Of a DNA stretch of 64,000 nucleotides, positions 14,044 to 63,255 are shown piece after piece. This stretch comes from Escherichia phage Ecwhy_1. A model generated the notes under the pieces. The model made no database searches and was not told the origin of the DNA. It saw only the letters and a program-made list of their open reading frames with translations. The stretch lies in the sequence record MH791411.1. One strand, 5' to 3'. The position numbers and the translations under genes are program-made. How positions within the stretch are numbered: the first letter of the stretch is position 1; every line of letters begins with the position of its first letter.

Positions 14044-14099
14044 GTATTTTCATCCAAATAAAAAGCCCAGATAATATATCCGAGCTTTAGATTTATGTT

Positions 14100-14426
14100 T
14101 TAACGACCAAATGTTTGAGCAGAGATGCGTGGATCAGTGTCAGATACCAAACTTACTGCTGCTGGATAATCAACGAGATTCATTTTAATACCATCAATCT
14201 CAATAGTTCTCGACCAACGACCGTGGTCAATTAGAATCCATTGTCCTTCTTTGATATCGGTAATGTCTTCACCAACAGAATATACTTTAGCCCAACGACA
14301 ACGAATACCACGTATCTTACCATCATCACTTGTCAGTACAATACCACCTGCGGTTTTACGCTCACCATGTTCTAGTTCAGTTACAATAACTTTACCTTTA
14401 CAAGCTGTCATTACTTTATTGGTCAT
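14100..14426 (-). CDS. Cpn10/GroES-like co-chaperonin (gp31-like?)
   Basis: KTAGGIVL...VYSVGEDI...EGQWILID resembles the GroES SAGGIVL...VLAVG...VGDIVIF pattern. Confidence 0.4.
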   Translation of the reverse strand: MTNKVMTACKGKVIVTELEHGERKTAGGIVLTSDDGKIRGIRCRWAKVYSVGEDITDIKEGQWILIDHGRWSRTIEIDGIKMNLVDYPAAVSLVSDTDPRISAQTFGR

Positions 14427-14429
14427 GAA

Positions 14430-14774
14430 TTACTCCTGATCTTTAGTTTTTGCTCGGCGTGGAGCTTTCTTCTCTTCAGATACTTCAACTTCTGGTTCTT
14501 GTGGTTGAACTTCAAAGCTTTCATCATCCCATACTTCTTCAGTACTATATTCAGCACTGTGAAGTTGGTGTTCAGGAATGAAATCAGGAATTTGCATTTC
14601 ACGTTCTTTTTCTTGGATTAGTTCTTCACGGGTTTTAATGACCGTACCACCTGAACCAATCTTATCACCACGAGCATTTAGGTTTGCATTACCTAGTGCG
14701 ACTTTGTGCTGGTTTTGATACTTTAGCATATCCATATCAATGGTGGTTCCACGATAAGTTGTGTGTTTTGACAT
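14430..14774 (-). CDS. hypothetical protein (114 aa), acidic C-terminal region
   Basis: ORF track. Confidence 0.4.
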   Translation of the reverse strand: MSKHTTYRGTTIDMDMLKYQNQHKVALGNANLNARGDKIGSGGTVIKTREELIQEKEREMQIPDFIPEHQLHSAEYSTEEVWDDESFEVQPQEPEVEVSEEKKAPRRAKTKDQE

Positions 14775-14819: not shown

Positions 14820-14828
14820 ATTATATCA
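14820..14828 (-). promoter_or_regulatory. extended -10 element TGATATAAT (minus strand)
   Basis: rc of 14820-14828 = TGATATAAT in the 63-nt gap upstream of the ATG at 14774. Confidence 0.35.
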
Positions 14829-14837
14829 CATGTTTTT

Positions 14838-15356
14838 CTACCATTTCAAAAATTCATTTACATCTAGTTTATACTTCAAAGAATCAACCATATGCAAATC
14901 AATCAGGAACAAACAATACGAAGCCACTGAACTACCACGCCCAAGACCCCAAAAAATATTGTGCTCTTCCATATAATCAACTAACCAGATCATACATCTT
15001 AAAAGCTTAGTCATGTTGTAATGTTCAAACAAATCAATCTCATACATTACACGTTCACGGGCTTCATCCGATGTACATTTCTGTAAAAAGTACTCACGCA
15101 AGTTGATGTTATCGTACACTGGATCATAACGCCATAGTTCATGGTTTTTATCATGTTCTATTGTATAATCCAGCATACGCTGTTCTAAACCAAATTTTTT
15201 ACAATTATCGTTAAATTTCAATCGTTCCGGTTCATCAATCTCCTGTAGCTGTAAGTACTGAATATCTGCACCACAGTTGATTGCATACACGACTGCATTA
15301 AGGTTACATTTTACATCACCATTGGGACTTATAAATCTGTTTCCTTGTACTTTCAT
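14838..15356 (-). CDS. family-C DNA polymerase (Pol III alpha/DnaE-type) palm, N-terminal fragment ending before the catalytic DxD
   Basis: YEIDLFEHYNMTKLLRCMIWLVDYMEEHNIFWGLGRGSSVASYCLFLIDLHMVDSLKYKLDVNEFLKW aligns by eye to DnaE ...ELDVIIQMGFPGYFLIV...[36 protein letters not shown]. Confidence 0.55.
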   Translation of the reverse strand: MKVQGNRFISPNGDVKCNLNAVVYAINCGADIQYLQLQEIDEPERLKFNDNCKKFGLEQRMLDYTIEHDKNHELWRYDPVYDNINLREYFLQKCTSDEARERVMYEIDLFEHYNMTKLLRCMIWLVDYMEEHNIFWGLGRGSSVASYCLFLIDLHMVDSLKYKLDVNEFLKW

Positions 15357-18052: not shown

Positions 18053-18081
18053 TATCTATAGATTATTTATATAAAGGACAA

Positions 18082-22435: not shown

Positions 22436-24578
<2,143 letters not shown>

Positions 24579-26556: not shown

Positions 26557-26615
26557 AACACTTTTGATTATTTATTGTTAAGAATCAAAATTATTTGTGT
26601 ATATCATTTAGTCTA

Positions 26616-41607: not shown

Positions 41608-41664
41608 AATTACTCCATATAAAATAAAAAAGACCTCTGTCTTGCTTTATGATATTTATCACAA

Positions 41665-60494: not shown

Positions 60495-60501
60495 ATAAAT
60501 A
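60495..60501 (+). promoter_or_regulatory. late-promoter-like ATAAATA box, copy 1 of a duplicated TTTGATAAATAATAT element
   Basis: resembles the T4 late promoter core TATAAATA with G in place of the first T. Confidence 0.3.
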
Positions 60502-60556: not shown

Positions 60557-60563
60557 GATAAAT
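60557..60563 (+). promoter_or_regulatory. late-promoter-like ATAAATA box, copy 2, 47 nt upstream of the ATG at 60611
   Basis: TTTTGATAAATAATATTAAGC; strong AAGGAG Shine-Dalgarno sequence at 60598-60603. Confidence 0.35.
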
Positions 60564-60610
60564 AATATTAAGCAGGGTGTTCCTGCACAAAATTTGACAA
60601 GGAGATTTTT

Positions 60611-62685: not shown

Positions 62686-62980
62686 TTGATTTCTTACCAA
62701 AAATTTCTTCAATTTTCATCACATAATATGTGTCTTCACCACCACCAAGATCTTCAGTGATAGGAGTGTTTAGTGATGAACGACCGAATACAACCATATC
62801 ACCAACACAAATATTATGTTCTGCAATTTGCCCATTAGGTAGTACTTTACCTTCACCAACTGAAATCACCATACCAACACATGGTGGTTCCACGTTTCCT
62901 AGGATAATACCACCAGTACTTTTATTCTGTGCTTCAATTTGACGAACCAGTACATAATCGTTAATCATTTTAATTTTCAT
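62678..62980 (-). CDS. Cpn10/GroES-like co-chaperonin
   Basis: from MKIKMINDYVLVRQIEAQNKSTGGIILG...VISVGEGKVLPNGQ...VGDMVVF...YYVMKIEEI, closely following the GroES pattern PLHDRVIVKR...KSAGGIVL...VLAVGNG...VGDIVIF. Confidence 0.55.
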   Translation of the reverse strand: MKIKMINDYVLVRQIEAQNKSTGGIILGNVEPPCVGMVISVGEGKVLPNGQIAEHNICVGDMVVFGRSSLNTPITEDLGGGEDTYYVMKIEEIFGKKSNG

Positions 62981-62981
62981 A

Positions 62982-63188
62982 TCAGTAACCTCCAGTGTTT
63001 GCAAACCATTTACCACGGAAATAAAGATTTGCACCTTTATCACCTGGGGTAAAAACTTCCAACTTCATAGTCTTCTCACCATTACATTGAGGACAATCAT
63101 GAGGTTCTTCACGATTGGCAATTTTTACAATCTTTTCTAAACTGTGTTTACATTCTTCTTTTTCACAACGATATGTATATAATGGCAT
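62982..63188 (-). CDS. zinc-ribbon protein (FmdB-like CxxC...CxxC)
   Basis: MPLYTYRCEKEEC...HDCPQCNG. Confidence 0.5.
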   Translation of the reverse strand: MPLYTYRCEKEECKHSLEKIVKIANREEPHDCPQCNGEKTMKLEVFTPGDKGANLYFRGKWFANTGGY

Positions 63189-63214: not shown

Positions 63215-63245
63215 AATCAAAAATTTGGGGAACTCCATGTTCCCC
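63215..63245 (-). terminator. intrinsic terminator (GGGGAAC/GUUCCCC hairpin), near-identical to the one at 19547-19565
   Basis: minus-strand AAUGGGGAACAUGGAGUUCCCCAAAUUUUUG directly after the gp45 stop; a TATAAATA box (rc of 63247-63254) lies just 5' of it. Confidence 0.5.
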
Positions 63246-63255
63246 ATTATTTATA

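Follow-up and report, generated by a model that had tools for sequence, protein, structure and literature searches.

The textbook example of a virus that replaces the chaperonin lid to fold its own capsid protein is bacteriophage T4 with its gp31. GroES and gp31 are characterized by the mobile loop, the roof, and the larger cage (PMC6318259, PMC5649160); the mobile loop contacts GroEL through a glycine and three hydrophobic residues (PMC5649160), and gp31 differs in that its roof is missing and its mobile loop is longer than that of GroES (PMC6318259). T4 gp31, RB49 CocO, and GroES replace each other for most clients, as summarized in the secondary literature (Keppel et al. 2002, cited in PMC5259590; PMC6318259). 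In jumbo phages, the 2017 paper on phage CBB described two GroES-like ORFs, CBB_131 and CBB_268 (PMC5259590), and the XacN1 paper named GroES among the orthologs specific to the RaK2-like phage group (PMC5852040). Here, we report on a stretch of 64,000 nucleotides from Escherichia phage Ecwhy_1 (MH791411.1; hereafter the window) which carries two genes of the Cpn10 superfamily, copy A and copy B. We consider it likely that both are genuine single-domain co-chaperonins, that they belong to different types, and that they serve as alternative lids for the host GroEL.

The window is 99.2–99.7% identical to Asteriusvirus-like jumbo coliphages of 350–385 kb (EC.P1, WPEC5, fEgEco12, vB_Ec-M-J, and BF17), with 99.6% identity to fEgEco12, EC.P1, and WPEC5 and ~82–85% identity to PBECO4, 121Q, and phAPEC6. 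An earlier note, made from the letters of the sequence, had proposed two separate Cpn10/GroES-like genes in the window. Intact minus-strand ORFs are indeed present at both places, each containing the peptides that the note had quoted (Table 1). Profiles of the A, B, and T4 gp31 families were compared with all 357 stop-to-stop ORFs of the window; copies A and B were the top two matches for each of the three profiles and no other ORF fell below E = 1, i.e., there is no third Cpn10 gene among these ORFs and the window therefore holds exactly two Cpn10-fold copies. The likeness between the two copies themselves is marginal (BLASTP E 0.017, 14/41 identities), and their genes are separated by 48 kb in different operons. 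Both genes match Cpn10 (PF00166) or gp31 profiles and folds, although the Pfam match of copy A is marginal, so the profile failure that would have undone the proposal was found for neither gene. The note had also allowed that one copy might be an unrelated beta-barrel protein, which is ruled out by the fold, motif, and fusion evidence given below.

Table 1. Features of the window around copies A and B, and tandem relatives from metagenomes. Positions are those of the window unless a metagenomic locus (L) is named; A and B in the lower rows denote domain types.
Feature	Position	Strand	Remarks
Terminator-like hairpin and T-run, just past copy A	14062..14088	-	12 pairs, then TTATTT
Copy A, putative gp31-type co-chaperonin, 108 aa	14100..14426	-	Identical to fEgEco12 g423, annotated "co-chaperone GroES"
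Codons G27-G28-I29-V30-L31 of copy A, predicted GroEL-binding tripeptide in mobile loop	14334..14348	-	Same as E. coli GroES GGIVL
114-aa ORF, no assigned function (fEgEco12 g422, phrog_14844)	14430..14774	-	Stop codon 3 nt before copy A ATG
Promoter-like site TTGAAATG-N-TG-TATAAT before g422–A pair	14820..14849	-	11/12 consensus matches, extended -10
Free-standing 172-aa ORF (pol III alpha fragment)	14838..15356	-	Match confined to part of the bacterial DNA polymerase III alpha NTPase domain, a short stretch (PF07733, E 5.8e-9)
Non-coding ATAAATA sites	18064..18070, 24571..24577, 26569..26575, 41653..41659, 63248..63254	-	
Non-coding ATAAATA sites	60495..60501, 60558..60564	+	
Virion structural protein, 241 aa	61960..62685	-	phrog_13349, 7e-111; ATG overlaps copy B end by 8 nt (ATGGCTAA)
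Copy B, GroES-type co-chaperonin, 100 aa	62678..62980	-	Identical to fEgEco12 g361, annotated "co-chaperone GroES"
Roof hairpin of copy B, residues 43–56 (EGKVLPNGQIAEHN)	62813..62854	-	Gap-free alignment to GroES roof NGRILENGEVKPLD
Codons G23-G24-I25-I26-L27 of copy B, mobile-loop tripeptide	62900..62914	-	Motif conservation
Zinc-ribbon protein, 68 aa	62982..63188	-	PF09723, E 6.4e-11; stop codon 1 nt before copy B ATG
Terminator-like hairpin TGGGGAAC...GTTCCCCA, then T-run	63226..63246	-	Between TATAAATA box and zinc-ribbon gene
TATAAATA box, candidate late promoter	63248..63255	-	60 nt before zinc-ribbon ATG
P0140, 208 aa			A + A; seen in two samples
P0142, 214 aa			A + A
P0141, 362 aa			A + A + A
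P0151, 209 aa			GroES/B-type N-domain (iE 4.5e-13) + A-type C-domain (iE 7.6e-39)
P0222, 200 aa			GroES-type N-domain (Pfam 8.4e-20) + A-type C-domain
P0184, 221 aa			A-type N-domain + B-type C-domain (iE 6.8e-16)
Loci of tandem forms	L113 922..1840; L114 2094..2696; L116 5001..6089; L117 5001..5627; L119 1867..2532		

Copy A, whose start is preceded by the ribosome-binding site AGGAG, is the more divergent case as far as Pfam is concerned: it matches Cpn10 with E 1.1e-4 and 22.6 bits (gathering score 21.1) over residues 8–65, so the support is marginal and confined to the N-terminal 58 residues, and against all NCBIfam GroES models it scored far under the cut-offs. It does match phrog_931 ("head morphogenesis") with E 3.7e-20, the same family that T4 gp31 itself matches with E 3.7e-50. 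Searches of the PDB sequences with copy A (phmmer) or with the A-family profile returned weak GroES matches (E 0.01–0.5) and never gp31; since the single-sequence search missed gp31, the link between them needed a profile–profile comparison. An alignment of 31 A-family sequences was therefore compared by hhalign with one of 22 T4-like gp31 proteins from which jumbo-phage members had been left out, and the two families matched at 94.5% with E 8.3e-8 over 67 columns. This match spans residues 1–69, and the C-terminal 40 residues of copy A are without a sequence match. The predicted structure of copy A has the GroES beta-barrel fold with top fold matches that are all co-chaperonins, and among its top 50 matches in the viral predicted structures of BFVD, every named one is a co-chaperonin.

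The details of the lid agree with this assignment. Within the mobile loop of copy A, G28 is invariant and I29 is conserved in at least 90% of 31 homologs, and the mean pLDDT of the model drops to 52–69 at residues 21–40, as expected for a flexible loop. The roof hairpin is missing from copy A, where a deletion of 7–9 residues lies at the roof position and a loop of 11 residues joins strands 44–51 and 63–66 in the model. On the C-terminal arm, after the mobile loop, copy A has 4–6 extra residues; counted from the sequences, the distance from the tripeptide Ile to the VG motif is 23 residues in copy A versus 19 in GroES. In the joint alignment, both the roof deletion and the post-loop insertion line up with those of gp31, the insertion being 6 residues long in either protein. 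The A family also has invariant residues, Arg44-Trp45 and Arg70-Trp71, with His68 in at least 90% of sequences. Judged from these features of sequence and model, copy A would be a gp31-type lid subunit and is most likely the functional counterpart of gp31.

Copy B is of the GroES type. We placed its start at the ATG at 62980, which has a GGAGG ribosome-binding site; the GTG at 63043 given by the mechanical ORF was rejected, as it would make the gene overlap the zinc-ribbon gene. Copy B matches Pfam Cpn10 with E 1.1e-16 and 61.1 bits (threshold 21.1), residues 2–96 falling on positions 1–92 of the 93 in the profile, and it matches phrog_3188 ("co-chaperonin GroES") with E 9.9e-27, to be compared with E 4e-31 for E. 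coli GroES. Solved GroES chains were matched with E down to 3.6e-10. By hhalign, the B family (24 sequences) matched E. coli GroES at 98.3% (E 1e-14), the A family at 67% (E 5e-5), and the gp31 family at 40% (E 3e-4). The GroES beta-barrel fold was found for copy B as well, with match values of 10.6 for GroES, 9.5 for Cpn20, 9.4 for Hsp10, and 8.5 for gp31.

In the copy B loop, G24 and I25 are invariant and G23 and L27 are conserved in at least 90% of the 24 homologs. Its mobile loop is two residues shorter than that of GroES, with Pro33 invariant and an EPPC motif nearly so; together with Phe65-Gly66 and Val87-Met88, Pro33 in EPPC belongs to the invariant features of the B family that are missing from GroES. 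The roof of copy B is modeled with short paired strands at residues 45–46 and 52–53, and in the joint alignment this segment is missing from both copy A and gp31. The two structural checks suggested by the earlier note gave the expected outcome: glycine plus three hydrophobic residues are found in the mobile loop of both copies, and the roof hairpin is present in copy B and missing from copy A, likewise from gp31. Please note that a terminator-like hairpin (CACCATGTGTTGGTATGGTG) was also called within the copy B coding sequence, at the EPPCVGMV codons (62867..62886, minus strand), a call that is probably coincidental.

Copy A comes second in a two-gene unit composed of the strong promoter-like site, the g422 ORF, copy A, and the terminator-like hairpin, and the unit is flanked by a pol III alpha fragment and a clamp loader. 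Homologs of g422 are found upstream of the A orthologs in CBB, PA5oct, and Atu_ph07, and in 76 of 79 IMG/VR loci a g422-like ORF lies directly upstream of A, within ~160 nt and on the same strand. The g422 protein has no Pfam or PDB match and no informative PHROG match. The g422-like proteins share an N-terminal motif, G..[IV]D[MV][DE]..[LI]...VA[LIV]...NA[RK]GD....G, and an acidic tail, and they may be functional partners of the gp31-type co-chaperonin. As a side observation, the pol III alpha-fragment ORF is found beside the g422–A pair in 77 of 80 IMG/VR loci. The promoter-like site before the pair fits, by its sequence, the TGAAACG "divergent RpoD-like" class, and the CBB ortholog pair is preceded by the same motif (L004 2058..2087); the CBB paper maps promoters of this class mostly before DNA-synthesis genes (PMC5259590).

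This neighborhood raises the question of whether copy A, with its GroES fold, has been taken over by the replisome or by some other process that works without GroEL, which would leave copy B as the only true co-chaperonin. The fixed position of A would speak for it: among the best 80 of at least 590 IMG/VR loci, to which our A synteny counts refer, 71 have the order pol III alpha fragment, g422-like ORF, A, and clamp loader. So would a promoter that seems to be of a class tied to replication genes, the marginal Pfam score of copy A, and the occurrence of GroES-like folds in dehydrogenases. We nevertheless regard such a recruitment as highly improbable. The GroEL-binding G-I-V-L motif is kept in the predicted flexible loop across the A family, the A family is homologous to the gp31 family, the top fold matches and the named ones among the top 50 in BFVD are all co-chaperonins, and relatives of A are fused to canonical Cpn10 domains. 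T4 gene 31 likewise lies outside the head-gene cluster, which weighs against reading a replisome role into the location of copy A.

Copy B sits in a different setting, between the zinc-ribbon gene and a gene whose orthologs carry the label virion structural protein in phages such as fEgEco12 and CBB. The earlier note had placed copy B after a zinc-ribbon gene preceded by a TATAAATA box, and both the gene and the box are real. Whether the box tells us anything about late expression is a separate matter. With 3 sites versus 7.5 expected, the window shows no enrichment of the full 8-mer, and we rejected it as a general late-promoter signal. The 7-mer ATAAATA has 12 sites in the window, seven of which fall within the 6% of the DNA that is non-coding; each of these seven is located 12–110 nt upstream of a same-strand gene start, and several precede virion-protein genes. 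ATAAATA was predicted as a late promoter before structural genes in the CBB paper (PMC5259590), and where it lies in the window agrees with a late promoter of the T4-like kind, as proposed for CBB and GAP32. Upstream of the zinc ribbon–B block, however, the TATAAATA motif is restricted to Asteriusvirus, being missing in RaK2, CBB, and 15 other relatives. As evidence that copy B has a late promoter, the box is weak, because a terminator-like hairpin directly follows the motif and because the motif is missing in relatives. A contrast in timing, with A expressed along with the replication genes and B late, is weak as well, and since the late motif before B is not kept outside Asteriusvirus, we refrain from calling copy B a late gene.

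By tblastn, copy A was found in 87 phage records and copy B in 80, and every B-bearing phage genome also carries A. The two occur together, ~48–51 kb apart, in Asteriusvirus, the RaK2 group, Munch, 7t3, Mimasvirus (GAP32, CBB), Eneladusvirus, Yersinia phage fHe-Yen9, and a Vibrio jumbo phage, with at least 33 Asteriusvirus-like Escherichia records having both. A occurs without B in Pseudomonas phage PA5oct, Agrobacterium phage Atu_ph07, and Sinorhizobium phage Phosso. The A family comprises at least 590 loci in IMG/VR and, in an exhaustive HMMER search, 621 clusters at 50% identity. Copy B is restricted to the RaK2-like enterobacterial group. Its family has 17 close IMG/VR loci, and the block of clamp, zinc ribbon, B, and virion protein is kept in 17/17 of them. 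A and B each hold a fixed position across genera diverged to 53–63% protein identity. The most likely explanation is that A goes back to the ancestor of a very broad supergroup of jumbo phages, in which it is a core gene, and that B is an addition made in the RaK2-like lineage of enterobacterial phages.

A third co-chaperonin paralog was observed in some of these phages. CBB gp131 (L007 3408..3689) is 51% identical to E. coli GroES, apparently without a roof hairpin, and is adjoined by a tyrosyl-tRNA synthetase gene. Genes of this type are present in Mimasvirus, Eneladusvirus, Yersinia phage fHe-Yen9, EJP2, and Hallingskeid, and tblastn did not find them in Asteriusvirus and RaK2. As CBB_131 is a third paralog, Mimasvirus-like phages carry three co-chaperonins and this phage two.

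One may then ask if the copies are simply redundant, i.e., if B just increases the dosage or fits the phage to the GroEL of different hosts, with no clients being divided between the two. The interchangeability of T4 gp31, RB49 CocO, and GroES for most clients would favor this, as would the third, more GroES-like copy in Mimasvirus and Eneladusvirus, which looks like repeated acquisition. Plain redundancy seems to us rather unlikely, though, since both genes have been retained in fixed positions through the 53–63% divergence mentioned above, B has invariant features of its own that GroES does not share, and the architectures of A and B differ exactly where gp31 departs functionally from GroES.

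Both copies are single-domain proteins in the window. Among the best A-family metagenomic representatives, tandem co-chaperonins exist in the forms A + A and A + A + A and as heterotypic fusions in both orders (Table 1). The slot of A, from the g422-like ORF to the clamp loader, holds four of the five tandem forms with informative context, P0151 and P0222 included; P0184 is found outside it and follows a poly(A) polymerase-like gene. The fusion proteins come from single metagenomic contigs each, and only P0140 (A + A) was seen in two samples. The fusion of A-type domains to canonical Cpn10 domains strengthens the co-chaperonin assignment of A. At L113, a single-domain Cpn10 gene directly precedes the two-domain gene; one single-domain protein and three double-domain proteins would allow seven domains, the same arithmetic that has been described for Chlamydomonas CPN10 with CPN20/23 (PMC5780408). 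We found no paper describing tandem phage co-chaperonins. At two metagenomic loci (L117 5697..7943 and L118 3793..6039), we also observed that the clamp-loader gene after the tandem co-chaperonin appears split, with a TnsA-like ORF between its parts and faint intein-splicing matches on both flanking parts, the sequence suggesting an intein or homing-element insertion.

The tandem forms bear on the possibility that A and B co-assemble on the host GroEL into mixed seven-fold lids in the manner of plastid Cpn10 and Cpn20, with the geometry of the lid set jointly by the roofless A and the roofed B subunits. If this were true, the mixed lids would be a phage counterpart of plastid Cpn10/Cpn20, and the cage would be tuned in size or openness by the A/B ratio, which might shift as the infection proceeds. 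The fusions of A-type with GroES/B-type domains in both orders (P0151, P0184, P0222), the A + A and A + A + A forms with four tandem proteins in the syntenic slot of A itself, the L113 gene pair with its seven-domain arithmetic, and the presence of A in every phage genome with B are all in keeping with it. Against this, A and B are encoded 48 kb apart in different operons, and A can do without B, given that PA5oct, Atu_ph07, and most of the at least 590 IMG/VR loci have A with no B-type gene alongside. The fusions, moreover, rest on single contigs with the exception of P0140, an A + A form, and a gene fusion indicates functional linkage and is not proof of co-assembly. On balance, we hold mixed lids to be improbable.

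We thus return to the reading of two alternative lids. A tblastn search with E. coli GroEL found no conserved GroEL gene in Escherichia jumbo phages; it matched 252 phage records, and "Escherichia" was outside the ten most frequent organism names among them. As no GroEL is encoded by the phage group itself, both proteins would cap the GroEL of the host, presumably as heptameric rings that bind through their mobile loops. Besides the host GroES, the infected cell would then gain one roofless lid (A) and one roofed phage lid (B), and these would differ in cavity geometry and probably in affinity. Copy A would most likely do the job of T4 gp31, i.e., assist the folding of the major capsid protein or of further phage clients of large size. 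Copy B, which is probably co-transcribed and translationally coupled with the virion protein gene, would most likely raise or retune the lid capacity. From the lid architecture, the gene neighborhood, and the phylogenetic spread, it is reasonable to suppose that A and B may be specialized for different clients. The capsid part of this scheme should be read with caution, as in the close relative phAPEC6, the size of the major capsid protein is 42 kDa, versus 56 kDa for T4 gp23, and a T4-style bigger cage for a big capsid protein is not obviously needed in this phage; copy A is, besides, within a block of replication genes and not within the head-gene block.

It is not our intention to overstate the novelty of the two genes. 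Both are identical to deposited proteins labeled as co-chaperonins, and the result is an ordinary one for this window; given the "co-chaperone GroES" labels in GenBank and the 2017 CBB paper, the finding is already known and its novelty is low. We found no experimental work on the co-chaperonins of this phage group in the literature; regarding expression and proteome data, chaperonins are unmentioned in the PA5oct omics paper and the fEgEco12 paper, and the sole "chaperon" match in the phAPEC6 paper is a title cited in its reference list. A phage group with a gp31-type and a GroES-type lid on the host GroEL, and a third lid in some genera, constitutes a natural test, from which one could learn whether the clients that a chaperonin can fold are determined by the architecture of its lid. 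The gp31-type gene, present at no fewer than 590 IMG/VR loci, marks the core of a very large supergroup of environmental jumbo phages. We consider the linked g422-like ORF and the tandem and heterotypic fusions most worth following up.

With regard to the known systems, CBB is the closest described one. CBB_268 is the ortholog of copy B and lies in the same gene block; CBB_131, in contrast, is the third, more GroES-like paralog and not the ortholog of copy A. That ortholog is gp330, which was "hypothetical" in the original record and was later relabeled "head morphogenesis"; hence, the pairing of a gp31-type with a GroES-type lid was not spelled out in the CBB paper. With plastid Cpn10/Cpn20, the phages share the presence of several co-chaperonin types in one compartment, and relatives of A are tandem, including heterotypic ones, as Cpn20 is (PMC5780408), whereas the genes in the window are single-domain and phage hetero-oligomers are hypothetical.

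Copy B differs from E. coli GroES in that it is only 33% identical, scores far under the NCBIfam GroES cut-offs, has the two-residue-shorter loop with the invariant Pro33 (EPPC), and belongs to a family whose Asteriusvirus and RaK2 branch has a 4-residue insertion of the GGGE/GGGK type near the C-terminus. Copy A resembles T4 gp31 (PDB 1G31, 2CGT) and RB49 CocO in that it falls in the PHROG of gp31 (phrog_931), is without a roof hairpin, and has its post-loop extra residues at the alignment position of those in gp31, and, as in T4, the lid is phage-encoded and the phage has no cognate GroEL. It differs in being ~21% identical to gp31, with only ~70 N-terminal residues alignable by sequence, in having the tripeptide GGIVL as in GroES versus SGLII in gp31, in its invariant Arg44-Trp45 and Arg70-Trp71 with His68 in at least 90% of sequences, and in its likely client, a capsid protein of 42 kDa (phAPEC6) versus 56 kDa. 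Finally, copy A has a second co-chaperonin beside it in this phage, and T4 gp31 has none.
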